From: Geotalea uraniireducens Rf4
GTDB lineage: Bacteria > Desulfobacterota > Desulfuromonadia > Geobacterales > Geobacteraceae
Direction: 5' to 3'
DNA length: 32,000 nucleotides
NCBI RefSeq assembly: GCF_000016745.1
Contig: NC_009483.1
Location: 240,001-272,000 of the forward strand
Shown here: in pieces, positions 2,469 through 26,268 of the stretch
How the letters are laid out: every line of letters begins with the position of its first letter
Numbering within the stretch: position 1 is the first letter of the stretch
The notes under the pieces: model-generated
Databases searched by the model: none
Seen by the model: the letters and a program-made list of their open reading frames with translations, nothing else
What the model was told of the DNA's origin: nothing
Position numbers and translations under genes: made by a program

Positions 2469-4393
2469 GTGCGCCAGGCATGGCGCGTGGCGCGTAAGCG
2501 CCATCCAATTGGGTATGGTGCCTGATTGGTGACTTGGAGGTGAAAGTCCTCTTCGGACCCTGATGGTGGGAACCGATAGCTGAACAGCAAGGGTGTCCGG
2601 GGCGACCCGGAATCTGAAGGAAGCTGTAGGCAAAGTCCTGGCCCGACGAACAGGAATCGCATATGAGGCAGCCACATCTGGGCGAGAAGGCAAACAGATT
2701 CAAAGCCCGATAACCATCCAGAAAGATGTGGAAGTAGATGCGGCGGGTATATGGGATGAAGGTCACGCGCATTACCCTGGGAGGTCTGTCAACCTGCCTT
2801 GTGCTACCGGCATCGAGAGGTGCCGGGATGGGTTGGCAGAAGTCAGCAGAGGCCATACGAGTCGGAATAACCGACCGACAAAGGGCCGAACTTGAAGTAA
2901 GCGGACAGGAGCCTTGAGTTTCGATGACGACAGGAGCAGCAGAAGGCCGGGTTGGGATACCCGGCGCCAGCCCGGAGGGTAGCGGTTGGAAACCGCGAGA
3001 GAAAGGGAGAGGTGCGGCAAACGTCACGGGAAGGAAAGCAGCTCACTGGCCGGAAGCGGCAACGGGACTGATGGAGAAGATCGTCAGTCGCGGCAACATG
3101 ATGGCGGCATACTCACGGGTAATGCGCAACAAGGGAGCGCCCGGCGTCGATAACATGCCGGTAACGGCCCTGAAGGGCTACCTACAGGAGGAATGGCCGC
3201 GCATCAGAGAAGAACTGCTGACGGGAACGTATCACCCGCAACCGGTGCGGAAAGTAGAAATTCCCAAACCGGGAGGCGGCACACGGATGCTGGGAATTCC
3301 CACCGTCCTTGACCGACTCATTCAGCAGGCGGTGCATCAAGTTTTGAGCCCGCTGTTCGACCCTGGTTTCTCCATAAGTTCCCACGGGTTTCGCCCTGGA
3401 CGGAGCGCCCATCAAGCGATCAAGGCAGCTCGGAAGTATGTAGAGAGCGGCCTTAGGTGGGTGGTTGACATTGACCTTGAGAAATTTTTCGACCGAGTCC
3501 ACCACGACACCCTTATGTCGCTGGTGAAACGCAAGGTTGGAGACCGTCTGGTGCTGTCCCTTATCGACAGCTACCTTAAGGCAGGGATACTTGAAGGAGG
3601 AGTGACGTCACCCCGGTTGGAAGGCACGCCGCAAGGCGGGCCTCTCTCGCCGCTGCTGTCCAACATCCTCCTCGACGAACTGGACAAGAAACTGGAAAGA
3701 AGGGGCCATAAGTTCTGCCGCTATGCCGACGACGCAAATATCTATGTTGCAACGAGGAGAAGCGGCGAGCGTGTCATGGCCTCAATTACCGGCTACCTGT
3801 CCGAGCGGCTCAAGCTCACGGTCAACCAGGGCAAAAGCGCGGTTGACCGTCCGTGGAAAAGGTCGTTTCTGAGTTACAGCATGACCCGGCACCGCAAACC
3901 GCGGCTTACCGTGGCCAAGAAAGCGGCTGCCAGGCTCAAGGCCAACCTCAAGACGATCTTTAGGCGGGGAAGGGGTCAGAACATCCAAACCACCGTTGAA
4001 GAGACAACCCCGAAACTTAGGGGTTGGTTAAACTACTTTCGGTACGCGGAAGTAAAAGGCATCTTCGAGGAACTGGACGGATGGCTGAGACGTAAACTGC
4101 GTCGCATTCTCTGGAAGCAGTGGAAGCGCCCCAAGACGCGAGCAAAGAAACTGATGCGGCGGGGATTATCGGAGGCAACTGCATGGCGGTCGGCCACAAA
4201 CGGCCGCGGCCCCTGGTGGAATGCAGGGGCCGCGCATATGAACAAAGCTGTTCCGAAATTCTACTTCGACAAACTGGGGCTGGTATCACTCATAGACCAG
4301 CTTCACCGACTTCAACGTACTTCATGAACCGCCGTGTACGGAACCGTACGCACGGTGGTGTGGGAGGACGGCGGGAGCAATCCCGCCTCCTAC
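2469..4393 (+). mobile_element. Group II intron (bacterial, class C-like), apparently full length
   Basis: 5' GTGCG at 2469. Intron-encoded RT ORF lies in domain IV. The domain V-like hairpin at 4329-4358 is CCGCCGTG-TACG/GAAC/CGTA-(CG bulge)-CACGGTGG. The domain VI-like hairpin with a GCAA loop ends ...CCTAC at about 4393. The 3' boundary is uncertain by about 10 nt. Confidence 0.8.
3071..4327 (+). CDS. Group II intron reverse transcriptase/maturase (no endonuclease domain evident)
   Basis: The ORF is open from 2924, but homology-type sequence starts at MEKIVSRGNMMAAYSRVMRNKGAPGVDNM (ATG 3071, 418 aa). Has RT blocks including RMLGIPTVLDRLIQQA and the catalytic YADD (FCRYADDANIYV), plus a maturase X-like C-terminus (LRGWLNYFRY). 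Confidence 0.9.
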   Translation: MEKIVSRGNMMAAYSRVMRNKGAPGVDNMPVTALKGYLQEEWPRIREELLTGTYHPQPVRKVEIPKPGGGTRMLGIPTVLDRLIQQAVHQVLSPLFDPGFSISSHGFRPGRSAHQAIKAARKYVESGLRWVVDIDLEKFFDRVHHDTLMSLVKRKVGDRLVLSLIDSYLKAGILEGGVTSPRLEGTPQGGPLSPLLSNILLDELDKKLERRGHKFCRYADDANIYVATRRSGERVMASITGYLSERLKLTVNQGKSAVDRPWKRSFLSYSMTRHRKPRLTVAKKAAARLKANLKTIFRRGRGQNIQTTVEETTPKLRGWLNYFRYAEVKGIFEELDGWLRRKLRRILWKQWKRPKTRAKKLMRRGLSEATAWRSATNGRGPWWNAGAAHMNKAVPKFYFDKLGLVSLIDQLHRLQRTS

Positions 4394-4486
4394 CCGATTT
4401 AACCGCAAGGGGAATACTGGCAATACCCGGCTTGTGCGGTACAATTTTTCTACGGAGAAGTCAGGCGGTTCTCAAGGAGGACGAGG

Positions 4487-7499: not shown

Positions 7500-7587
7500 T
7501 TCGGAAACCGACGAAAAGGCAAAGCACGGGCAACCGTGTGACGCAAAGCTACCTGTCCAGTTGCAACTGGATAGAGGGGCTGCCGAA
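7500..7587 (+). promoter_or_regulatory. GEMM-I (cyclic-di-GMP-I class) riboswitch aptamer
   Basis: P1 is TTCGG (7500-7504) / CCGAA (7583-7587). Conserved GGCAAA, then a CACGG-GCAA-CCGTG hairpin (GNRA tetraloop), then the GACGCAAAGC signature, then a second hairpin UCCAGU-UGCA-ACUGGA and GGGGCUGCC. This matches the Vc2-type consensus as I recall it. Confidence 0.8.
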
Positions 7588-7775: not shown

Positions 7776-8738
7776 ATGGAAGCATTATTGCGGAATATGG
7801 TTCTGATAATGTTTGTGTGGCTGATGCTGGCGGGGGTCTGCCTTGGCAAGCAGGTCTATATGACGGATGGCGGCATCATAGATTGCGAATCCATCTGGCG
7901 GCGGGGCGGCCAGGTTATTGTCAAGGTGAACCGGGACATTGTCGTCGATTTTGAACGGAGCGAAATAGATTTAAAACGGACCTTCCCCGAAGCCAAGAAA
8001 AACCCCCATCGCGTCCTACGAAAAAAAACTGCCCGCGCTGTTGTGCCACCCAGCGCTACGGCACTGGCTGCCGCAGCGCCAACGATTCCCGTTACGGCGG
8101 CGCCTCCTGCGCCAGCAGCAAATCCGGTCCGGCCACAAGCAGCTGCTCCGGCACTCGCAGCAAAACCGGTTCCGTCTCCTGCTCCCGCCCCCGCGCCGGA
8201 GGCGAAAGAACCAGTTCAGCCTGAATCGGCTCAATCCGCTTCCGCAGATCCTTCTTTGCCCCCTGACAAAGCAGAGATGGAGCGTCGGAGTCGGCAAGCT
8301 GCGGAAATGATGGCCGAGGCAATACAGAAGAAAGATCCCGAACTGTTAAAAAAGGCCATTGAGGCTCAGAAGAGCGCCATGCCGCAAAACAGGGCAGAAA
8401 CTGCGGGAAGGAGCCTCAGATACCTGCTCCTCCTGCTGGCCGTTTCCCTCCTGATTGTTGTTTCCATGTGGGTCGTATTCGAAAAGGCAGGTCAATCAGG
8501 CGTTCTAAGCATTATACCGATTTACAACATGTACGTCCTGATGGAAATATCCGGCAAGCCCGGATGGTGGCTGGTCCTGCTGTTCATCCCCGTTGTCGGC
8601 TTTGTGTTCCTTCTCCTGGCCATGCTCGCTCTGGCCGAAAAATTTGGCAGAGGCGCATTGTTCGGCCTTGGGCTATTCTTTTTGCCGATGTTCTTTTTCC
8701 CGATGCTTGCCTTTGGCGGTTCGCAGTATGAGGGGTAA
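7776..8738 (+). CDS. Membrane protein with signal/anchor, small N-terminal domain, Pro/Ala-rich linker and C-terminal DUF5684-like multi-TM domain
   Basis: 320 aa with a GGGAGGG RBS. The C-terminal MWVVFEKAGQSGVLSIIPIYNMYVLMEISGKPGWWLVLLFIPVVGFVF...FGLGLFFLPMFFFPMLAFGGSQY matches the DUF5684 pattern as I recall it. Confidence 0.7.
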   Translation: MEALLRNMVLIMFVWLMLAGVCLGKQVYMTDGGIIDCESIWRRGGQVIVKVNRDIVVDFERSEIDLKRTFPEAKKNPHRVLRKKTARAVVPPSATALAAAAPTIPVTAAPPAPAANPVRPQAAAPALAAKPVPSPAPAPAPEAKEPVQPESAQSASADPSLPPDKAEMERRSRQAAEMMAEAIQKKDPELLKKAIEAQKSAMPQNRAETAGRSLRYLLLLLAVSLLIVVSMWVVFEKAGQSGVLSIIPIYNMYVLMEISGKPGWWLVLLFIPVVGFVFLLLAMLALAEKFGRGALFGLGLFFLPMFFFPMLAFGGSQYEG

Positions 8739-8806: not shown

Positions 8807-9748
8807 ATGCCCGATCCCCGCATTCAGAAAGCACTCCGCGCCCTCTCGGACAACATCGAACAAGTAATCGTCGGTAAAAAGGAGGTGATCGACCTGGCGA
8901 TCATTACCCTCCTTTGCCGCGGCCACCTCCTCATCGAGGACGTTCCAGGCCTCGGCAAGACCATGCTTGCCCGTGCCATCGCCGGCTCGTTGTCGCTGGA
9001 CTTCAAGAGGGTCCAGTTCACCCCCGACCTGCTGCCGTCGGACGTGACCGGCGTCTCCATCTACAACCAGAAGAGCGGCGAGTTCGACTTCCGTCCCGGG
9101 CCGGTCTTCACCAACCTCCTCCTGGCGGACGAGATCAACCGGGCGACCCCCCGCACCCAGTCGAGCCTCCTGGAGTCCATGGAGGAGCGGCAGGTGACTA
9201 CCGATGGCACTACCCGGCCGCTGCCGCCGGTGTTCATGGTGGTAGCCACCCAGAACCCCATCGAACTGCAGGGAACCTATCCGCTCCCAGAGGCTCAGCT
9301 CGACCGGTTTTTCATGCGGGTGAGTGTTGGCTATCCGGCCCGTAACGAGGAGGTGCGGGTGATGGAGATGCAGATCCGCGAGCACCCGATCCATGGCATC
9401 AAGCCGGTTCTCACCGAAGAACACGTGCGCTTCATGCAGAATGCGGTGACCGAGGCGCATATCGACCGCTCGCTCCTCGCCTACATCGTCGACATCGTCA
9501 ATGCTACCCGTAAGCACCCGGAACTTCAGGTCGGGGCGAGCCCGCGAGGCTCTCTCTCCCTCATGCGGGCGGCCCAGGCGATGGTTCTCTTGCGCGGCAT
9601 GGAGTTCGTGGAGCCGACGGTGATCAAGACCCTCGCCCGTCACGTCCTCACCCACCGCTTGATCGTCAAGCCCCAGGCGCGCCTGAAAGGGTTGACCGAG
9701 GCCAAGGTGGTGGAGGAGATCCTCCAGGGAATACCTGCCCCGGTATGA
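8807..9748 (+). CDS. MoxR-family AAA+ ATPase
   Basis: 313 aa. Walker A is EDVPGLGKTMLARA and Walker B is LLADEINRATPRTQSSLLE. Also has VVATQNP and the MoxR C-terminal lid (GASPRGSLSLMRAAQA). Confidence 0.92.
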   Translation: MPDPRIQKALRALSDNIEQVIVGKKEVIDLAIITLLCRGHLLIEDVPGLGKTMLARAIAGSLSLDFKRVQFTPDLLPSDVTGVSIYNQKSGEFDFRPGPVFTNLLLADEINRATPRTQSSLLESMEERQVTTDGTTRPLPPVFMVVATQNPIELQGTYPLPEAQLDRFFMRVSVGYPARNEEVRVMEMQIREHPIHGIKPVLTEEHVRFMQNAVTEAHIDRSLLAYIVDIVNATRKHPELQVGASPRGSLSLMRAAQAMVLLRGMEFVEPTVIKTLARHVLTHRLIVKPQARLKGLTEAKVVEEILQGIPAPV

Positions 9749-10983
9749 GCGGATTGGAACGCTTGCTCACCCGGCGCAACGCCCTTCTCGTCCTGGCGGC
9801 GGTATTCTTCCTCATCGCCTGGAACCGGGAGGTGAACCTCCTCTACGGCATGTTCGCCCTGGTTAGCGCCACCGTCATCGTTGCCGTCATTCTCCCCCGT
9901 TTTGCCCTCAAAGGTATCGAGGTGTGCCGCATGCTTCCGACCGCGGCATTCGAGGGGGAGGAGATCGAGGTCTGCGTCACCATGGCCAACCGGGGACGGG
10001 CCTCACGCTTCATGGTGGAGGCAGTGGATGCCGTTCCCGCCGCCGCTCCCCACGAGCGGGAGCCGCTGGTCTTTGCCGGCAGGCTGGTGGGGCGGGCGCA
10101 GCGCAATTTCAGCTACCGGCTTGTCTGCTACAAACGTGGCCTTTATACGGTCGGTCCGCTCCGGCTCCGCTCCGCCTATCCCTTGGGAATAGCCTGGTCG
10201 GAGCGGGAAGGGGACCCGTCCCTCCACACCCTCCTCGTCTATCCGTTCATGTTCGAGATCGCCTCCTTTCCCCTCATTGCGACTGGAACCCTCGTGACGA
10301 GCGGCATGGAGTCCCTGGCACGGGCGGGGGGGAGTGACGACTTCTTCGGCACGCGCGAGTACCGCCAGGGGGACAGTCTGCGCCATATCCACTGGCCCTC
10401 CACGGCACGACATGACCGGCTCATCGTCAAAGAGTTCGAGGTACGCGTTTCGGCGGAGACGACCCTTCTTCTCGATCTCCACCGTGATGCTGATGTGGGG
10501 GAGGAGCGGGAATCGACCCTGGAATACGGGGTGCGGATCGTCGCATCCGTTGCCGGCTATGCCCTGGAAAGGGGGCATACGGTGCAGCTGGCCGGCTTTG
10601 GCAAGGGGTCCCATGTGGTCCCGCCGGGGAGAGGCAGGCACCACCTGGCACAGCTGCTCGATGCGCTGGCTCGGGTGGAAAGCGATGGCCGTATTCCCTA
10701 CCATGAAGCCATCGTCCGCGCTGCCGACCTTATGCGGGACGGGAGCACGGCGGTCCTCTTTTTCTCCGGCGGCGAATCGCTCGAAGATTATCTCTATCCC
10801 CTCGGTCTTCTTCGGGCAAAACGGGTGCGGCCGGTGGCGGTCTTCTTCGACCGGGCGAGCTTCTCCGGCGAATTCTCTTTCTCCCGGCCGGCAGAAGATC
10901 CGCTCCCCCGGGAGCTCTTCGCCATGGGGGCACCGGTCTATTTCGTGGCCAGGGGCAGCGATCTGCGGGAGGTGTTTGCATGA
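9745..10983 (+). CDS. DUF58 domain protein (vWA-like fold), the usual MoxR partner
   Basis: 412 aa. ATGA overlap with the moxR-like stop. Two N-terminal TM helices. Signature REYRQGDSLRHIHWPSTARHDRLIVKEFE. Confidence 0.88.
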   Translation: MSGLERLLTRRNALLVLAAVFFLIAWNREVNLLYGMFALVSATVIVAVILPRFALKGIEVCRMLPTAAFEGEEIEVCVTMANRGRASRFMVEAVDAVPAAAPHEREPLVFAGRLVGRAQRNFSYRLVCYKRGLYTVGPLRLRSAYPLGIAWSEREGDPSLHTLLVYPFMFEIASFPLIATGTLVTSGMESLARAGGSDDFFGTREYRQGDSLRHIHWPSTARHDRLIVKEFEVRVSAETTLLLDLHRDADVGEERESTLEYGVRIVASVAGYALERGHTVQLAGFGKGSHVVPPGRGRHHLAQLLDALARVESDGRIPYHEAIVRAADLMRDGSTAVLFFSGGESLEDYLYPLGLLRAKRVRPVAVFFDRASFSGEFSFSRPAEDPLPRELFAMGAPVYFVARGSDLREVFA

Positions 10984-13271
10984 CGGAGCGCATCCAGTAC
11001 CCCCCCGTTTACCTGGGGATATACTTTCTCCTCATGACTGCCGTGACGGCTGCCATGTGCGCCGTAGCGCCGCCGCTCCAGGCTATTGCCTACACCCTCT
11101 TCTGGGGGGGTGTCTATGGCGCCGGCCTCTATTTCTGCCGCAGGTTCGGTGAGGACAACGAGGAGCGATTCCAGCAGCTCGCCAACGGCGGCGCCGGACT
11201 CGCCCTTGTTCTCTTTTTCGGCGGCTTCGCCTTTTCCGGCGTCGAGACGGGACTCATCCTGCTGCTCCTCACCCTCCAGGCGGGGCGCAACCTGGTTCTC
11301 GCCACCCGCCGCGACCTGAACTTCGCCTGCCTGATTTCCCTCGTTCTCCTCCTCTACGCAGCCGGGAAGGCAATGGAGGGGTACTTCATCGCATTTATCG
11401 TTCTCTATGCCCTGGCGGGAATGTTCACCTTCATGACCGATCACATCGATGCCCGCCTCACCCATGCCCATGGCGGGGATCGGGATCTCCTCAGCCGACG
11501 GATGAACCTGCCGGTGAAGGGAATCGGCTTGGCGCTACTCACCCTTGCACTCGCTTTCGGTATCTACCTGCTGGTGCCGCGGCCACCGTCACCCCGGGTG
11601 CAGGCATTCCCGGCATCGAGTAACTGGAACTACGATAACCGTCACTGGGAAGAAGAGGCAAAGATGCCGCGCCAGGATGGCCAAGGGCAAAACGACGATG
11701 GCAACGGGGAGTCCGACATGAGCCGCCGCCAACTGGTCGAAGCATCCCAAGGACAGGTTAACTCTTCCGAGTACGGCGGGTTTCAAAACAGGTTCGACGT
11801 CGCGGAAGTCGGGGAGTGCGCCCTCCGCCCCGATACGGTGGTTCTCTATCTCCAGGCGGACAACCCTCTCTATGCAAGGGGCAAGGTATTCGACACCTTT
11901 GACGGCCGCCGCTGGGAGGATAGCGGCGCCGGCGCCGAGAAACACTATAACCGGGATGGCCGGTTTACCTTCGGCGCAAAGCCTCAACCCGGCGATACGC
12001 TCCAGGTCTTCACCGTACGCCAGGATCTCCCGCCGTTCATCTTCGCCGCCTACCAGCCGATCCTCGTCTCCTTTCCGGGGAACGTGATCGAGACCGACGG
12101 CGCCCTTGCCCTGCGCGCTCCTGCCCGGCTCCGCAAGGGAACCATATACTCCGTAGCCTCCCACCTGGAGGAGGTGGACAAGCATCCCTGCAGCGGGGCG
12201 TCCATGGCCGGTGATGATGGGTGGACGCCGGACGGCCGTTATCTTGCCCTCTATCCCGATATCTCCGAGCGCTTGCGCGCACTTGCCAGCGACATGGCCA
12301 AGGGGGCCACGGATGACCTCGGACGGGCGAAGGCAGTGGAAGCCTACCTGCGGGATAACTTCGCCTATACCCGCGATACCATGGGGGTCAAATGGAGCGG
12401 CAATCCTGTGGAGCAGTTTCTCTTCGACCTGAAGGCCGGGCATTGCGAGTTGTTCGCCTCCTCCATGGTGGTCATCCTGCGCACCCTCCACATCCCGGCC
12501 CGGCTCGTCACCGGTTTCTACGTCAACCGCTACAACCCGGTCACCGGCTACTACGAGGTGCGGGAGTCGGACGGCCATGCCTGGGTGGAGGCATACCTGG
12601 AGCCGCACGGCTGGGTCACTTTCGAGCCGACCTCCAGCTTCGAGCTGCCGAAGCGAAGCCAGCGGCTCTTCGTTGCCACCGGGCTGGTCCGTTATCTGGG
12701 CGACCGCGCCGAAAACCTGATCCGCAAGCACCGGCATTCCTGGTGGACACAGCTTCTGCAAAAGATCTGGACGGTACTGCTTAAGCTCTGGCTGGCCCTC
12801 ATGGCCACCCTCGCAATGATGAAATTGGCCTGTCTTTCCCTCTGGTTCTGGTTTCTCCGGGTGGGGTGGATGCTTATTCTGCTACTCCTCGCCGCCGCTG
12901 GCGGGGGCTGGTACCTGTGGCGCTATTTCGAGCCGGCCTGGCGTCTCGCGCGGCTGCGCCGGGCCCGCGATGGGGACCCGCAGCGTTTTCTGCGCCTCTG
13001 CTACCGGGAGATGGAGCGGCACTTTGCCGCACGGGGAGTAGCACGGGCACCACATGTCACGCCGCTGGAGTACGAGCTACTCCTCGCCAAGCGCTTTAAA
13101 TTCCTGTCTGATCAAGTTGCTGCCATTACCCGTCTCTTCCAGCAAGCCGCCTACGGCTCCGCGCTGGTCGCTGCCGCCGATGCGGAGGAGGCATTTCGGG
13201 CGTTTGAGGAGATACAGCGGTGGAAGAGTCCAACCCATAGGGATGGGAAATTCTATGCAGAAAATGATTGA
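10980..13271 (+). CDS. Polytopic membrane transglutaminase-like protein with a DUF4129-like C-terminus
   Basis: 763 aa. ATGA overlap with the DUF58 stop. N-terminal multi-TM region. Transglutaminase core GHCELFASSMVVILRTLHIPARLVTGFY...SDGHAWVEAYL...GWVTFEPT. C-terminal TM segment plus a TPLEYELLL-type DUF4129 segment. Confidence 0.88.
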   Translation: MTERIQYPPVYLGIYFLLMTAVTAAMCAVAPPLQAIAYTLFWGGVYGAGLYFCRRFGEDNEERFQQLANGGAGLALVLFFGGFAFSGVETGLILLLLTLQAGRNLVLATRRDLNFACLISLVLLLYAAGKAMEGYFIAFIVLYALAGMFTFMTDHIDARLTHAHGGDRDLLSRRMNLPVKGIGLALLTLALAFGIYLLVPRPPSPRVQAFPASSNWNYDNRHWEEEAKMPRQDGQGQNDDGNGESDMSRRQLVEASQGQVNSSEYGGFQNRFDVAEVGECALRPDTVVLYLQADNPLYARGKVFDTFDGRRWEDSGAGAEKHYNRDGRFTFGAKPQPGDTLQVFTVRQDLPPFIFAAYQPILVSFPGNVIETDGALALRAPARLRKGTIYSVASHLEEVDKHPCSGASMAGDDGWTPDGRYLALYPDISERLRALASDMAKGATDDLGRAKAVEAYLRDNFAYTRDTMGVKWSGNPVEQFLFDLKAGHCELFASSMVVILRTLHIPARLVTGFYVNRYNPVTGYYEVRESDGHAWVEAYLEPHGWVTFEPTSSFELPKRSQRLFVATGLVRYLGDRAENLIRKHRHSWWTQLLQKIWTVLLKLWLALMATLAMMKLACLSLWFWFLRVGWMLILLLLAAAGGGWYLWRYFEPAWRLARLRRARDGDPQRFLRLCYREMERHFAARGVARAPHVTPLEYELLLAKRFKFLSDQVAAITRLFQQAAYGSALVAAADAEEAFRAFEEIQRWKSPTHRDGKFYAEND

Positions 13272-14567: not shown

Positions 14568-16004
14568 TTACAGGTAGGGGGAGAAGAGTTTTGCCATCCC
14601 GTCCCGGATCTTTTCCGGAATGCTCCTGGCGTTATCGACCTCGGTGAGCGTGACTTCCCTTGATTCAGCCACAGCCGCGGCAAATTTGTCCGCCAGTTGC
14701 CGCGCAAGCTCCCCGTCATACACCTCCAGGTTAAGCTCGAAGTTCAGCCTCAGGCTGCGCGGGTCCAGGTTTGCCGAGCCGATCAGACTCCAGATGTTGT
14801 CCACCAATAGCAGCTTGGTATGGACGAAAGGTGGCGGCTGATAATAGACTTTTATGCCCTGCTGCAGGAGCTCCCAGAGGTAAGCCCTGCCGGCCCAGTG
14901 GACAAAGGGGAGGTTGTTCAGCGACGGCAGCACCAGGGTTACTTCAACCCCGCGCAGTGCGGTAGTGACCAGGGCAGAGATCAGCGGACGGTCGGGGATG
15001 AAGTAGGGGGTCATGATCTGCACCCTCTCTCTGGCGCAGGAAAGCGCCCCCATGATGATCCAGTTGAGCTTCCTGAATTCCTTGTCCGGTCCGTCGCTTA
15101 CAGCCCTGACCAGCGCTCCCCCCGCCGGGGAGATGGTGGGGAAAAACCGCTTGTCTTTGACGAGTTCGCCGGTGACAAAGTACCAGTCTTCTAGAAAGGT
15201 CCGTTGCAGGTCGCTTACCACCTGTCCCTCGACCATGAAGTGCATGTCTTTAACAACCGGTGGTCCGCTGTCTCTCTTCACCATATGCCGGTCGCCGATG
15301 TTCATTCCGCCGGTAAAGCCCCTTGAGCCGTCCACGACGAGGATCTTCCGGTGGTTGCGCAGATTTACGTATCCACCCTGTCGGAGCGGGAGAAAGCGGC
15401 CGACCCTTACCTTTGAGCCTTTCAGAAGTTTGCGCGCGGTGGGGCGGGAGTACTTTTCACCGAGGCTGTCGATAATGATGCGCACCTCCACGCCTCTTGC
15501 CGCAGCGTCTTTCAGGGCTTTCACAAATCTGCGCCCTGTCGGGTCTCCGTCGAATATGTAGGTGCTCAGGTTTATCGAATGGGTTGCATGGTTTATTGCA
15601 TCGAGCATGGCGGGATAGGCAGACTCACCGTTTTCCAGCGGTGTGAGTCGGTTGCCCGGAACGAGTAGAGTGCTGACTACCCGGTCGGAGAGGGAGCGGA
15701 GTTCGTTCAGGTATTTCGCTTCCGGGGGGAGGGTGCTTGCCGCTTGCCGGGTATTTCGGGGGGAAAAGTTTTCCCACCCTGCCAGACGCCGGCCGCTCTC
15801 CAGCCACTGGCGCGCCTTGCGGGAGATGCGGTTTACTCCCATGCTCCAATAGAGCAGTGGGCCGAAGAGGGGGAGGGTCAGGCAGACGATGATCCATCCC
15901 AGCGCGGAACGGGGGTCCCGCTTCAACAGCAGGGCGTGGCCCGCTGAAAGAAGCGCAAGGGCAGTCAGCGAGCAGAAGAAAAGTCCCTGTAAAACGTGAT
16001 CCAA
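14568..16004 (-). CDS. cls: Cardiolipin synthase (PLD superfamily)
   Basis: 478 aa. TTG start preceded by GAGGAGG. Two N-terminal TM helices. Two HKD motifs (HRKILVVDGSRGFTGGMNIGD and HTKLLLVDNIWSLIGSANLD). Confidence 0.92.
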   Translation of the reverse strand: MDHVLQGLFFCSLTALALLSAGHALLLKRDPRSALGWIIVCLTLPLFGPLLYWSMGVNRISRKARQWLESGRRLAGWENFSPRNTRQAASTLPPEAKYLNELRSLSDRVVSTLLVPGNRLTPLENGESAYPAMLDAINHATHSINLSTYIFDGDPTGRRFVKALKDAAARGVEVRIIIDSLGEKYSRPTARKLLKGSKVRVGRFLPLRQGGYVNLRNHRKILVVDGSRGFTGGMNIGDRHMVKRDSGPPVVKDMHFMVEGQVVSDLQRTFLEDWYFVTGELVKDKRFFPTISPAGGALVRAVSDGPDKEFRKLNWIIMGALSCARERVQIMTPYFIPDRPLISALVTTALRGVEVTLVLPSLNNLPFVHWAGRAYLWELLQQGIKVYYQPPPFVHTKLLLVDNIWSLIGSANLDPRSLRLNFELNLEVYDGELARQLADKFAAAVAESREVTLTEVDNARSIPEKIRDGMAKLFSPYL

Positions 16005-16099
16005 ACCGCCTCCTCAGGCATTATACCATGGGCCGGGAGTCATCAATATTATCATAAAAAAGGGAATGACGAAAGCGCCACCCCCTGTCAACACCCGAT

Positions 16100-16660
16100 T
16101 TAGAGAAGGCTGTATGGCTGAGCCCGCTTGACCCATTCGCTGTCCGGATAATCGGACGCGAGTTTTTCGTAGGCTTCCTTCAGTGGCTTGGCGTCGTGGC
16201 TGCTTTTGAAGCGGCAGACACCGCGCAGGTAGACCGCTTCCGGTGCGGCTGCGCTTTTCGAATAGCTGGACAATATCTCATCCAGGTGGAGTATTGCGTC
16301 GTTAAACTGCTCCGTGTCGAAATCGGTCTTTCCCATCCCCAGCAGCAGTGAGGGGACCAGCTCGTCGGGTGGGAGGAATCCGACGGTCCGGTGATGTTCC
16401 CTGCCGTAGTAATCCAGTGAAACCAGGGTGGGGGTCCACATGACCTTGAACTCGGTGGAGAGCGGCTGGGCATCAGCGGGGACCCGCAACGGCACAATTT
16501 TCCGGTCGATGAAATCTATGACTTTTGCATTGGGATACGTGACCGCATCCATCTGTTTGCAGCCGATTCAGCCGGGGTTGAAGAAATCGAGGAGTATCGT
16601 CCGTTTTTCGGCTTGTCCCCGGGCAAGGGCCTTGCTCATTTCCGTTTCCCATTTAATCAT
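16100..16660 (-). CDS. Thioredoxin-fold protein with probable selenocysteine (UxxC) at codon 31
   Basis: The track ORF 16100..16552 continues in frame upstream through TGA (16570-16568) to ATG 16660, which is preceded by GGAGG (16672-16668) at 7-nt spacing. The N-terminus reads MIKWETEMSKALARGQAEKRTILLDFFNPG-U-IGCKQMD, which resembles the LVDF..WCxxCKxM thioredoxin-like motif with Sec replacing the first Cys. Confidence 0.75.
16533..16550 (-). promoter_or_regulatory. Candidate bacterial SECIS hairpin
   Basis: The minus-strand sequence GGAUGCG-GUCA-CGUAUCC forms a 7-bp stem including one G-U pair. It starts 17 nt after the UGA, and the apical region contains GGUC as in E. coli fdhF. Confidence 0.55.
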
Positions 16661-16702
16661 GGCCAGACCTCCGTGGAAAAGAATAAAGACATCCTGAGTC
16701 TA

Positions 16703-16730
16703 AGATTAGCCCGACTTGGGGCGATGTCAA
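16703..16730 (-). promoter_or_regulatory. Candidate promoter for the selenoprotein gene
   Basis: Minus strand TTGACA (16730-16725), 16-nt spacer, TAATCT (16708-16703). The -35 is perfect and the -10 is weak. Confidence 0.35.
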
Positions 16731-16925
16731 GAAATGCGTCGCTAGCCTGTGTCGCCAGGAGTCTGTCGGACTTAGGAATGAATCTACTGCGAGAATGGCA
16801 AATCGGTCCATATTTCCGTAAATTTTCGACAAATAGGTCCACCATTAGCTCTCAAATTTCCGAAAATCTGTCCTCGATTTTCCATCCTCTCGCTACGATT
16901 CTCTAAGTCCGACAAACTCCTAGCC

Positions 16926-16953
16926 TTGCAGTTTTGCCCGGAATGCTTATAAT
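16926..16953 (+). promoter_or_regulatory. Candidate sigma70 promoter for rsmB
   Basis: TTGCAG (16926-16931), 16-nt spacer, perfect TATAAT (16948-16953). Confidence 0.55.
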
Positions 16954-17007
16954 GGGGCAGCGTCGTATAACGAAATCAAAGCTGTATCCAATAAACGGGA
17001 GCCAAAT

Positions 17008-18354
17008 TTGTCCACCACCAATCCACGCAGCGCCGCCTTTGAAATCCTCCTGCGCATCGATAAAGAGCGCTCTTATGCCGATATCCTCATTGACCGGGAG
17101 CTGTCCTCCGGCTTTCTCCAGGGGCCGGACCGGGGGCTTCTGACCGAGCTGGTTTACGGGGTGCTGCGCCGTCAGGGGACCCTCGATTACATCATCAACC
17201 GCTTTTCCAAGCAAAAGAGCGAGCGGCTGGAGCGATCGGTGCTGGTCCTCCTCCGCATCGGGCTGTACCAGATATTTTACCTGGACCGGGTTCCCGTCTC
17301 AGCAGCAGTCAATGAAACGGTCAAGCTGGCAAAAGTACTGGCGCCGCGGGCCTCCGGTTTCGTCAACGCAGTGCTGCGCAGCGCCGACCGGGAGCGGGAC
17401 GACATTGCCTACCCGGATAAAGAGAAGGACCCGGTCGGTTATCTCTCCACCTTTTATTCCCACCCATCCTGGCTTGTGGCCGGATGGATCGGGCAGCTCG
17501 GCTTTGCCGAGGCGGAGTCCCTGGCCAAGGCAATGGCCGAACCTCCGCCGCTCACCATCAGGACAAATACCCTGAAGACGAGTCGTGAGGAGCTCATGGA
17601 GCGGCTTGCGTCTGAGGGGGTGCAATGCGAAGCCACGCGCTTTTCGCCGCTCGGCGTCCGCATCATCACGGCAGGTTCGGTCGCCAGGCTGCAAAGCTTT
17701 CGCGATGGCCTGTTTACGGTCCAGGACGAGTCGTCCCAGCTTGCGGTCATGTTCCTCTCGCCGGAGCCGGGGGAAAAGGTGCTGGACGCCTGCGCCGCAC
17801 CGGGGGGGAAGGCGACCCACATGGCGCAGCTCATGGGGAACAGCGGCGAAATCATCGCCTGTGACGTGATCGGCCGCAAGCTCCGCCTCATCGGGGAAAA
17901 CGCCGCCCGGCTGGGCATCTCCTGCATCAAGACCGTGCCTCTGAATACGGCCAGGCCCCTGAACTCCATCAAGGACGCCCGTTTTCAAAGGATTCTTCTC
18001 GATGCCCCCTGTTCCGGGCTCGGCGTCATCAGGCGAAACCCCGAAGGGAAATGGTGGAAGACGGCTGCCGACGTGGCGGAGCTCGTCCGCGGGCAGAAAA
18101 CCATCCTGGAAAACCTGGCCGGCTACCTGAAGCGTGGCGGTATTCTCCTTTACGCCACCTGCTCCACCACCAGGGAGGAAAATGAAGCGGTCATCGACGA
18201 TTTTCTTTCGCGGCACAGTGATTTTGTGCTAGAAGATTTACGCGTCCTCTTTCCGGCATACGGCGAACTTATTACGCCGCAGGGGTGCTTCCGCGGCTGG
18301 CCGCACCGGCAAGGGATGGACGGCTTTTTCGCCGCACGGCTGAAGAAAATTTAG
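17008..18354 (+). CDS. rsmB: 16S rRNA (cytosine967-C5)-methyltransferase
   Basis: 448 aa. TTG start 6 nt after GGGAG. N-terminal NusB-like domain ([21 protein letters not shown]). SAM-binding [13 protein letters not shown], and catalytic [15 protein letters not shown] plus ATCS motifs. Confidence 0.92.
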
Positions 18355-23293: not shown

Positions 23294-24121
23294 CTATTTC
23301 AGCTCCTTCAGCTTTTCCTTGGCAATTCGGGCCTCATCAGTATAGGGCGAATCTTCGATCAGCTTCTTGTAAACATACCTGGCGCTTTTTGCATCTCCCA
23401 ACTCTTTAAAAGCCATGGCCTGCTTTAGCATGGCAGCCGGAACTTTTTCTTTGCCGGGGTAATTCTTTATCACTTCCTGGAATTCCAGAATCGCCTGGTC
23501 GTACTTCTTTTCATGGTAATATGTTTCTCCGAGCCAGTAACGTGCGTTTGCAGTCAATTCATGCTTGGGGAACAGTTCGATGAATTTTGTAAAGTACTCC
23601 CTGGCCTTCTGTGGATCGCCCCCCTTGAGTGTGTCTAGTCCCCTTTGGTAGAGCGCATCAGGCGCTTGTTCCATCTCTTTATTCTTAGCTTCAGCCAGTG
23701 TTTTATGCAGTTCTTCAAAAGATTTGTCCAGCTTCAACAGACGTTCTTCCATGGCGGTTAGCCGCCGGTCGGTATCTTCCTTCAACAGAGCGAGATCATC
23801 TGCCGGTTTCTGGGCCAGCAGCCTGACATCATCAACCTTACCGGTCAGGACCTGCATGTCGACCTTGGCGCTGTCTAGGGTTGCCTGTAGGTCGGCACTT
23901 CCTTTACGTAGATTATCCATCTCATTCTGAACGTCCTTGATGGTTTTGTCGATGCCTTCTTTCGCTTCGCTGCGCATCCCGCCGATGTCCTTTTCCATCT
24001 TGAACATCCGGGTTTTCATCTCGTCCATGTCGCGCTGCACATTGTCTACGGTTTCCCTCGATGCGCAAGCCGAAAGGGCCAGCGCCAGGACGATGGGTGA
24101 CCACCTTCTGATGAACTGCAT
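23294..24121 (-). CDS. ybgF: Tol-Pal system protein YbgF/CpoB (coiled coil plus TPR)
   Basis: ATG 24121 is preceded by GGAGGA; the track ORF extends to 24181. Signal/lipobox-like LALALSAC, a long coiled-coil segment, and C-terminal TPR repeats (ARYWLGETYYHEKKYDQAILEFQEVIKNYPG...). Last gene of the tol-pal cluster. Confidence 0.85.
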   Translation of the reverse strand: MQFIRRWSPIVLALALSACASRETVDNVQRDMDEMKTRMFKMEKDIGGMRSEAKEGIDKTIKDVQNEMDNLRKGSADLQATLDSAKVDMQVLTGKVDDVRLLAQKPADDLALLKEDTDRRLTAMEERLLKLDKSFEELHKTLAEAKNKEMEQAPDALYQRGLDTLKGGDPQKAREYFTKFIELFPKHELTANARYWLGETYYHEKKYDQAILEFQEVIKNYPGKEKVPAAMLKQAMAFKELGDAKSARYVYKKLIEDSPYTDEARIAKEKLKELK

Positions 24122-24216
24122 AGTGGCAAATCCTCCTTCTTTGATAAAAAAACAGCCGCCGCAAAATACCATCACACCCATATGCCTTGCAGGGGATTAT
24201 GATGACGGCGTTGCAT

Positions 24217-24245
24217 ATAAAAAAGGAGCCCAAGAGGGCTCCTTT
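24217..24245 (-). terminator. Intrinsic terminator/attenuator after pal
   Basis: Minus strand GGAGCCC-UCUU-GGGCUCC followed by UUUUUU (plus-strand A-run 24217-24224), located between pal and ybgF. Confidence 0.65.
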
Positions 24246-24265
24246 TGCGGTTAAAAAGAAACTGA

Positions 24266-24850
24266 CTACTTGATGATGACGAATTCAGCCCTACGGTTTT
24301 TAGCCCACGCAGCTTCATTGTGGCCCGGGTCGGCGGGCTTTTCTTTGCCGTAGCTGATGACGCTGAGCTGGTCAGCGGGAACCCCCAGGGTCACCAGGTA
24401 GTTCATGGCTGACTTGGCACGTTTTTCACCGAGGGCGAGGTTGTATTCGTCAGAACCTCGCTCGTCGCAGTGCCCTTCAATCTGGACCTTCGCCCGTCCG
24501 GTTTTCAGCAACCATTTGGCATTGTTGGACAGGATATCGCGCGAGGTCTGCGTGAGAACAAAAGAGTCAAAGTCGAAGTAAACTTTTCCCAGCTCAGTGG
24601 CGGCTACGGCAGTCACGGGCTGTTCTTTGATGCTTGCTTCAGCGATTGTCGTCGCCTCCTTTATAGGCTGTTCCTTCACAACTTCTTCAGTCATCGATGG
24701 CTTGGCGGGGGGCGTTACAGCGGGCTTTTCAGTTGCAGCAGATGGGACGACGCCTTCTTCACCCTTTACCATTTCTTTCTTGGCGCAGCCTCCCACAAGA
24801 AGCGCTCCGCAAAAAAGAACCGTCACCAAGCCTACCATACCCTTACGCAT
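24266..24850 (-). CDS. pal: Peptidoglycan-associated lipoprotein (OmpA-like)
   Basis: 194 aa. Lipobox LLVGGC. Pro/Thr-rich linker. OmpA_C motifs (VYFDFDSFVL, IEGHCDERGSDEYNLALGEKRA, NRRAEFVI). Confidence 0.92.
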   Translation of the reverse strand: MRKGMVGLVTVLFCGALLVGGCAKKEMVKGEEGVVPSAATEKPAVTPPAKPSMTEEVVKEQPIKEATTIAEASIKEQPVTAVAATELGKVYFDFDSFVLTQTSRDILSNNAKWLLKTGRAKVQIEGHCDERGSDEYNLALGEKRAKSAMNYLVTLGVPADQLSVISYGKEKPADPGHNEAAWAKNRRAEFVIIK

Positions 24851-24984
24851 TTTCCGTTCTCCTTTTCATAGCATCGATTTTAATCAGAGGCCTATGCCTC
24901 GAAACTGCCAAAAATGTTAAAAGATTATACATGAGTCTGGGGCATTTTCAATCATTCTTCTCGGCGGTCGGAAAAGTTTTTTTG

Positions 24985-26268
24985 TTACCAGCGGGGTGAC
25001 CACGCAGGGTGAGAATCCGCGCCCTTTCCTCTCGATACGCGGGTTTGTCCGCTTCCGTCGCTTCTCATCACATAGATTGCTTCCTTGCCGCCACGCGTTG
25101 AGCTGAAAGTGATGAAGCGGCCATCCGGCGACCAGCGAGGATGCTCGTTGCTCCCCTCGGAAGTAAGCTGAACGTCGCTGCTGCCATCCGCGTTAATCAC
25201 GTATATCTGGAATCCACCGCCGTGTTGGCGGCAGTAAGCGATGCGGTCCCCCTTGGGTGACCAGCGAGGGCTGACGTTGTAGGTTCCGCTGGTGGTTAAC
25301 CGGCTGACGTTGGAACCGTCGGCGTTCATGATGAAGACTTGCGGCTTACCGAGCCGGTCCGAGACAAAGGCTATTCTTGAGCCGTCAGGCGACCATGCCG
25401 GTGAAACCTCGATGGCGCTGTTGTTGGTAAGCTTGGCCAGCTGTTTTCCATCCTTGCTGATGGTATATATCTCCGAGTTGCCGTCCTTGCTCATGGCGAG
25501 GGCGATCTTGCTGCCGTCCGGCGACCAGGCGCCGGTGACGTTAATGCCCGGTCGCGCCGAAAGGCGTGCCTCCGTGCCGCTGAACAGTTCCCGGCGGTAG
25601 AGGTCGGGATTTCTTCTTTTATAGGAAGTGTAGATGAGTTCCTTGCCGTTGGGCGAGAAGTCGGGGTTGAGGTTGATGGAGCCGTTTTTGGTCAGACGTT
25701 GCACGTTATAACCGTCGTAGTCCATCAGGCAGATCTCCTTGTTCCCGGTAGCCGTGGAAACAAAGGCGGTCTTGCCGGTGAAGGGACCCCGTTCGCCGGT
25801 AACGGCAAGCATGATCTCATCGCCGAAGGTGTGGACGATCTTGCGCAGGTCTGCACGTTTGCCCGAGTAGCGCTTGGCGGCCAATTCCTTGCCTCTTGCC
25901 ACATCGTATAGCCTGAACTCAATGGTCAGGCTGTCTGCTGAAACGGTATAACCGCTCTTGACCAGCAGGTTGGCTCCGGCAGCCTGCCAGGGTGCAAAGT
26001 CGAATTCGCCCGGTCTGATGCCGCTTTTGCTTTCTGCCGGTGGCGTGGGCATTACCGCGAACGGACCGGCCAGGGTGAGGTCAAAGCTGAAAACTTCGGA
26101 GATTCCCTTGGCAATGTCGGCGCTTGGCCCGCCGAAAAGAGAAACGGGCTGGGCAACGGCCAGCTGCATCTGCCGGTTGCCGGGGGCGGTGACCTCCAGG
26201 TAGCCCTGTTGAGCCTGGAGAAAGGAGGGTACGCAGAGCAGCAATAGTACTACAAGAAATTTTCTCAA
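24985..26268 (-). CDS. tolB: Tol-Pal system beta-propeller protein TolB
   Basis: 427 aa. TTG start overlapping the tolA stop. Signal peptide MRKFLVVLLLLCVPSFLQAQ. Repeated ...SPDG..IAF.S.R.G...IY... propeller blades. Confidence 0.92.
   Translation of the reverse strand: MRKFLVVLLLLCVPSFLQAQQGYLEVTAPGNRQMQLAVAQPVSLFGGPSADIAKGISEVFSFDLTLAGPFAVMPTPPAESKSGIRPGEFDFAPWQAAGANLLVKSGYTVSADSLTIEFRLYDVARGKELAAKRYSGKRADLRKIVHTFGDEIMLAVTGERGPFTGKTAFVSTATGNKEICLMDYDGYNVQRLTKNGSINLNPDFSPNGKELIYTSYKRRNPDLYRRELFSGTEARLSARPGINVTGAWSPDGSKIALAMSKDGNSEIYTISKDGKQLAKLTNNSAIEVSPAWSPDGSRIAFVSDRLGKPQVFIMNADGSNVSRLTTSGTYNVSPRWSPKGDRIAYCRQHGGGFQIYVINADGSSDVQLTSEGSNEHPRWSPDGRFITFSSTRGGKEAIYVMRSDGSGQTRVSRGKGADSHPAWSPRW

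Follow-up and report, generated by a model that had tools for sequence, protein, structure and literature searches.

Does the TGA codon that interrupts a thioredoxin-like reading frame of Geotalea uraniireducens Rf4 end a gene, or is it decoded as selenocysteine (Sec)? The locus lies on the minus strand of the window, by which we mean the whole stretch of 32,000 nucleotides that was analysed (contig NC_009483.1, positions 240,001 to 272,000); all coordinates below are positions in this window. At this locus a program-made list of open reading frames shows just a 150-amino-acid piece (16100..16552). An earlier note, made from the letters alone, had proposed that the piece belongs to a UxxC selenoprotein split by its own Sec codon and followed by a SECIS hairpin. 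We consider it close to certain that the in-frame TGA encodes Sec in a probably cytoplasmic thioredoxin (Trx)-fold selenoprotein, with the hairpin acting as SECIS. The proposal is correct but not new, as the gene is a known selenoprotein that was published in 2006. The computational evidence comprises the structure of the gene, the pairing of Sec with Cys among homologues, the conservation and covariation of the SECIS, the protein fold and the identity to the published entry. The parts of the locus are as follows:

16668..16672, minus strand: ribosome-binding site GGAGG, by direct sequence reading, with a 7-nt spacer (tctggcc) to the ATG
16100..16660, minus strand: full selenoprotein coding sequence, 186 codons plus TAA, by translation
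16660-16658 and 16102-16100, minus strand: start codon ATG and stop codon TAA, respectively, from translation of 16672..16097
16568..16570, minus strand: UGA, predicted to encode Sec at residue 31, where it opens the U-I-G-C redox motif
16559..16561, minus strand: TGC for Cys34, an invariant column in an 82-sequence alignment, presumed to be the resolving cysteine in UxxC
16533..16550, minus strand: predicted bacterial SECIS hairpin GGAUGCG-GUCA-CGUAUCC, from the minimum free energy (MFE) fold, covariation and the bSECIS consensus
16346..16660, minus strand: Trx-fold domain, DsbD-gamma-like, about residues 1-105, from Pfam, PDB profile and Foldseek matches
16103..16339, minus strand: C-terminal all-helical TPR-like domain, about residues 108-186, from weak Pfam, NCBIfam and PDB profile matches and the AlphaFold model of a homologue
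16061..16086, minus strand: terminator-like hairpin and T-run, a pattern match only, from a consensus scan

The 150-residue open reading frame begins at an ATG (Met37 of the full protein) and, as had been claimed, no GGAGG-like motif is visible by eye in front of this codon, where the bases lie inside the coding frame. Upstream of 16552 the frame is indeed open apart from the TGA, and it extends to the ATG at 16660 with its well-spaced GGAGG. Translation returned the added N-terminal residues as they had been given, MIKWETEMSKALARGQAEKRTILLDFFNPG-[TGA]-IGCKQM, within the longer peptide MIKWETEMSKALARGQAEKRTILLDFFNPG-[TGA]-IGCKQMDAVTYP on the minus strand. Downstream, the terminator-like pattern consists of an 11-pair stem followed by TTTTTATGAT and starts 14 nt past the stop codon; a cardiolipin synthase gene (14568-16004) lies beyond it. 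A sigma-70 scan of 15950-17050 found no promoter. The neighbours rsmB/rpe upstream and cls downstream are common only to Geobacteraceae loci (20-24 of the best 80 loci), and we therefore read them as inherited synteny and not as an operon. Together with the terminator-like hairpin after the stop codon, this confinement suggests that the selenoprotein gene is monocistronic and stands alone.

A protein search returned 960 homologues, which fall into two classes: full-length proteins of about 186 amino acids, and proteins of 149-150 amino acids whose first residue is precisely Met37. Similarity to the query is higher in the truncated class (69-98% identity). The full-length homologues place C-I-G-C opposite TGA-I-G-C, so that the TGA takes the position of the first Cys of a CxxC motif, as the earlier note had it. 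Their alignment continues through the TGA, with strong conservation of the 30 residues before it. When one genome per GTDB species was scanned, a relative was present in 276 genomes; among the best 80 loci, the codon for residue 31 is TGA in 74 and TGC in six, the latter being of the Geomonas type (L025, L045, L056, L065, L073 and L079). The surrounding context, LLDFFNPG-U-IGC[KQ]QMDAVTY, is almost invariant in these 80 loci. By record title, the TGA carriers include Geobacteraceae, Syntrophaceae, Desulfobacteria, other Thermodesulfobacteriota, Nitrospirota and Ca. Brocadia (Planctomycetota), among others. Going by these codons and record titles, the family is predicted to be overwhelmingly Sec-using across at least three phyla. 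A single Ser form, P0023 (L081:1501-2070), has TCA in place of TGA, giving the motif S-T-G-C, and Leu replaces the Pro two residues before; its SECIS-like hairpin, GGATGCAGTTTCGTATCC, is still intact. This form may reflect either a recently lost Sec or a mistake in the assembly.

The thiol:disulfide interchange protein selenoprotein family was reportedly first described by Kryukov and Gladyshev in 2004, a work that we take to be reference 12 of a 2026 review. That review credits the family to its reference 12, equates 'thiol:disulfide interchange protein' with 'Trx-like 2', assigns it a PF13098 domain and a UxxC motif, and grades it 'predicted with high confidence' and not 'experimentally verified' (PMC13188914). 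The family is also covered in the GOS paper (PMC2398784), and the members recorded by Zhang et al. (2006, Genome Biol 7:R94, PMC1794560) come from G. metallireducens, G. uraniumreducens and Syntrophus aciditrophicus. Additional file 4 of the latter paper lists a sequence named "Geobacter_uraniumreducens" under "Thiol:disulfide interchange protein". Translated with U at the TGA, our product is identical to this entry over 186 of 186 residues, which upholds the UxxC selenoprotein reading and means that the gene is not new. The G. metallireducens member is 51% and the Syntrophus aciditrophicus member 48% identical to it, with the common motif FFNP[GN]UIGCK.MDAV. The query is thus a member of the Trx-like 2 family with no gene-level difference: it is homologous to the known members, carries PF13098 with UxxC, shows a Sec/Cys pair with conserved flanks, and has a bacterial SECIS hairpin. 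What the present analysis adds to the published family is modest, namely the preference for Sec in 74 of the best 80 loci, an explicit account of SECIS covariation, the two-domain fold and the continuing truncation in databases.

Sec decoding is documented for the source organism. Eight selenoproteins have been listed for G. uraniumreducens, which are SelD, two FdhA, a Prx-like protein, a thioredoxin, proline reductase, the thiol:disulfide interchange protein and a distant AhpD homologue, and the organism has four entries in the accompanying SelA/SelB/SelD/YbbB sequence file (PMC1794560). ARAGORN found no tRNA in the 32-kb window, and so no tRNA-Sec, and a Pfam scan of 20 neighbouring or large open reading frames of the window showed no sel gene. 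The Sec machinery of the host is therefore known from the literature alone.

The hairpin is itself coding and falls within the M-D-A-V-T-Y-P codons. It had been placed 17 nt past the TGA, and it starts there, with its apical loop beginning 24 nt past the UGA. Folding of the surrounding 76 nt returns the hairpin as part of the MFE structure (z = -2.06 for the segment). The published bSECIS consensus describes an apical loop of 3-9 nt, a stem of 4-16 bp, a distance of 16-37 nt from UGA to loop and an MFE of at most -7.5 kcal/mol, with a G among the first two loop bases and usually G or U after it (PMC13188914, Fig. 2 legend). With a 4-nt GUCA loop, a 7-bp stem, the 24-nt distance and -9.6 kcal/mol for the hairpin alone, the element falls within every one of these limits. 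The SECIS part of the earlier note is borne out in homologues as well, in that Sec forms keep the hairpin, with compensatory changes, and Cys forms have lost it. At Rfam gathering thresholds, nothing matched at the selenoprotein locus.

Conservation of the stem was followed in 73 Sec-form sequences (72 loci plus the query gene). The 6-bp core GGAUGC/GUAUCC is intact in 71 of them, and the other two have a C-U mismatch at pair 3. This pair is A-U in 56 Sec forms, G-C in 12 and G-U in three; its change couples an Asp to Gly replacement (GAU to GGU) with a synonymous UAU to UAC change. At pair 4, 71 Sec forms have U-A and two (L034 and L036) have A-U; in these two, GGU to GGA is coupled with a Tyr to Phe replacement (UAU to UUC). 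In the Thr/Ser codon the wobble base is paired in the stem, and it is G in all 73 Sec forms and C or U in Cys forms. Of the six pairs, the five Cys forms examined have only three or four left, and their minimal hairpin energies are 0 to -5.6 kcal/mol, as against -4.8 to -11.6 kcal/mol in Sec forms.

In an alignment of 70 Sec-form sequences, the two arms pair in 99.5% of cells; sliding the 3′ arm by one to three columns lowers this to 22-66%. Double-sided changes occur at two pairs, to which the covariation support is confined, and the observed covariation score was reached by none of 500 shuffles. RNAalifold, run unguided, predicts exactly the hairpin helix and no other. Retention of both the TGA (74 of the best 80 species-level genomes) and the stem is thus far beyond chance. 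Part of the conservation of the hairpin is at the protein level, since it lies within the strongly conserved MDAVTYP codons. The pattern at synonymous sites and the decay of the stem in Cys forms nevertheless point to selection acting on the hairpin RNA.

The fold of the product was approached with the TGA replaced by Cys. As the earlier note had anticipated for a thioredoxin-family search, Pfam Thioredoxin_2 (PF13098) passed its gathering threshold, with 36.2 bits against a cutoff of 27 (8e-9) over residues 17-102, a match that spans the TGA; weak TPR_6/YfiO matches followed in the C-terminal part. NCBIfam returned no model specific to the selenoprotein, just domain-level matches far under their cutoffs. 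The best of these were to the DsbD-like C-terminus of TsoB and to that of DsbD (NF001419, 35.7 bits with a cutoff of 330, over model positions 461-566 of 574); those in the tail were to YbgF/BamD (tol_pal_ybgF, 7e-7, 29.9 against an equivalog cutoff of 90.1). A profile of 82 full-length homologues, searched against the PDB, matched DsbD C-terminal domains over residues 6-104 (E about 5e-11), and CpoB (2e-8) and YbgF (2e-6) over residues 110-181. The model cd02953, which we take to be that of the DsbD-gamma domain, would agree with the DsbD-gamma-like assignment.

An AlphaFold model of the Cys homologue P0005 (68% identical; pLDDT 97.5, pTM 0.91) predicts a Trx fold with six to seven helices (97-184) after it, and shows no transmembrane segment. 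Foldseek places the DsbD gamma domain as the closest single domain (TM score normalised to the target 0.65-0.71, rmsd 2-3 A, 27-28% identity), and E. coli YbbN/CnoX as the top whole-chain match (top entries 3qou and 3qdn, with 196-200 aligned columns). These matches and the secondary structure of the model together indicate a two-domain architecture, with an N-terminal Trx and a C-terminal TPR domain. Inspection of the N-terminus by eye found neither a signal peptide nor a membrane segment, and the protein is therefore probably cytoplasmic.

Each of the known systems resembles the query in part. The DsbD gamma domain (PDB 2fwf, 1uc7 and 1vrs) is the closest solved Trx domain and has its CxxC-type active site at the same place. 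It is, however, the Cys-using periplasmic end of a membrane electron transporter, whereas the query is predicted to be a standalone, Sec-using protein with a TPR-like tail and no signal peptide or membrane domain seen by eye. DsbD has a three-domain layout of periplasmic alpha, transmembrane beta and periplasmic gamma domains; of these, the 186-residue query has a match to the gamma domain alone. CnoX/YbbN, a 'chaperedoxin', is the best whole-chain fold match and has the Trx-plus-TPR architecture in common with the query. Identity is 14-16% and the rmsd over the whole chain is 11-12 A, so that the orientation of the domains differs; moreover, the TPR part of the query (about 80 amino acids) is much shorter than that of the 282-285-residue YbbN chains. 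No YbbN chain came up when PDB sequences were searched with the profile at E <= 0.01. The likeness of the query to CnoX/YbbN is thus one of predicted architecture and fold.

The CpoB/YbgF TPR domain (PDB 6g5s and 2xev) matches C-terminal residues 110-181 at the profile level, but the query differs from these proteins in having no visible signal peptide and no coiled-coil N-domain, and in the position of its gene outside the tol-pal cluster. Identity with BamD was considered and rejected, as TIGR03302 gave 27.8 bits against a cutoff of 81.4 over residues 104-181 only. BamD/YfiO is an outer-membrane lipoprotein with a lipobox and five TPRs, in contrast to the query, whose N-terminus is a Trx fold and not a lipoprotein signal.

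These data also bear on other readings of the TGA. It could be a genuine stop codon in a pseudogene or truncated gene, from which at most the 150-residue open reading frame starting at Met37 (16552..16100) would be made. Gene callers and the PGAP pipeline treat the locus in this way, and many database entries are 149-150-residue proteins from Met37, some of them named hypothetical protein or BamD. Judging from the model, such a protein would have neither the active site of the Trx fold nor its strand 1 and helix 1, and its occasional BamD name runs against the sub-threshold BamD score given above. Since the ribosome-binding site precedes the ATG at 16660 and not Met37, since conservation of the protein sequence extends over the 30 codons ahead of the TGA in several phyla, and since the TGA itself is retained in 74 of the best 80 genomes, we regard a genuine stop as highly improbable. 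A sequencing or assembly error in a TGC codon for Cys would need only one base, and the six Cys forms show that such codons exist at this site. The same TGA is found, however, in 74 independently assembled genomes and in the sequence of the same organism published in 2006, which makes an error hardly credible.

A further reading would have the TGA decoded as an amino acid other than Sec, by near-cognate read-through as Trp or Cys or under an alternative code. Some metagenome gene calls do have W at residue 31 (P0007, P0009, P0016 and P0094). One of these, P0009 (loci L082/L083; L082:243-392), was checked, and its DNA has TGA and gives no translation to the query under table 11; its W therefore stems from the gene caller's use of code 4 (TGA = Trp) on a short contig. 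The site is that of the catalytic first Cys of CxxC, for which Cys is the only natural alternative in the best 80 loci, covariation in the downstream hairpin is confined to TGA forms, and the host is a documented Sec decoder with the standard code. We accordingly give decoding as another amino acid very little credence, and return to Sec as the preferred reading of the TGA.

Under Sec decoding, translation would begin at the ATG at 16660. When the ribosome reaches the UGA at 16570-16568, the hairpin 17 nt downstream would serve as the SECIS and recruit SelB-GTP carrying Sec-tRNA(Sec). Binding of SelB-GTP to the hairpin loop would allow Sec, and with it selenium, to be incorporated, and translation would go on to the TAA at 16100. 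The predicted product of 186 amino acids would carry its redox centre, U31-I-G-C34, in the N-terminal DsbD-gamma-like Trx domain. Sec31 may act as the nucleophile on a substrate disulfide or an oxidised thiol and form a mixed selenenylsulfide, which Cys34 would resolve, and a reductant would then recycle the Se-S bond. The C-terminal TPR-like tail probably binds a partner or substrate.

A more far-reaching proposal, which we put forward tentatively and think unlikely to hold as a whole, is that the 186-residue Trx-plus-TPR subfamily constitutes an almost obligately Sec-dependent, CnoX-like cytoplasmic redox protein. Its TPR domain would bring specific clients to a Sec-based reductase centre, and Sec would have been kept across Desulfobacterota-type lineages, Nitrospirota and anammox Planctomycetota, with reversion to Cys only in the Geomonas clade. 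Neither a chaperedoxin-like role nor near-universal use of Sec is stated in the accessible published descriptions of the family.

The main importance of the locus is for annotation quality. It had been predicted that automatic annotation would truncate the gene, and about 40% of the top database matches are 149-150-residue products from Met37, P0027, P0029 and P0046 among them. Public databases still hold most members of the family in such truncated form and some are mislabelled, NCBI naming some of the products 'outer membrane protein assembly factor BamD'. A family-specific model that includes the Sec site and the SECIS would mend hundreds of records.

Elsewhere in the window, the only Rfam matches are to a group II intron and a c-di-GMP riboswitch. 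The complete-looking group II intron occupies 2596-4398 on the plus strand, where matches to domains D1-D4 and to domain V/VI flank an open reading frame (2924-4327) with reverse-transcriptase and maturase domains. The c-di-GMP-I riboswitch (7508-7587, plus strand, 69 bits) lies upstream of an open reading frame at 7776-8738, the C-terminus of which matches DUF5684. Genes for a MoxR AAA ATPase, a DUF58 protein and a TgpA-like transglutaminase follow in a row at 8807-13271 on the plus strand, in an arrangement typical of MoxR-associated clusters. Finally, part of a Tol-Pal cluster is found at 23294-26268 on the minus strand, with TolB at 24985-26268 and a YbgF/CpoB-like TPR protein at 23294-24181. 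It is the family of this TPR protein that the C-terminal domain of the selenoprotein most resembles, though the two are separate genes about 7 kb apart.
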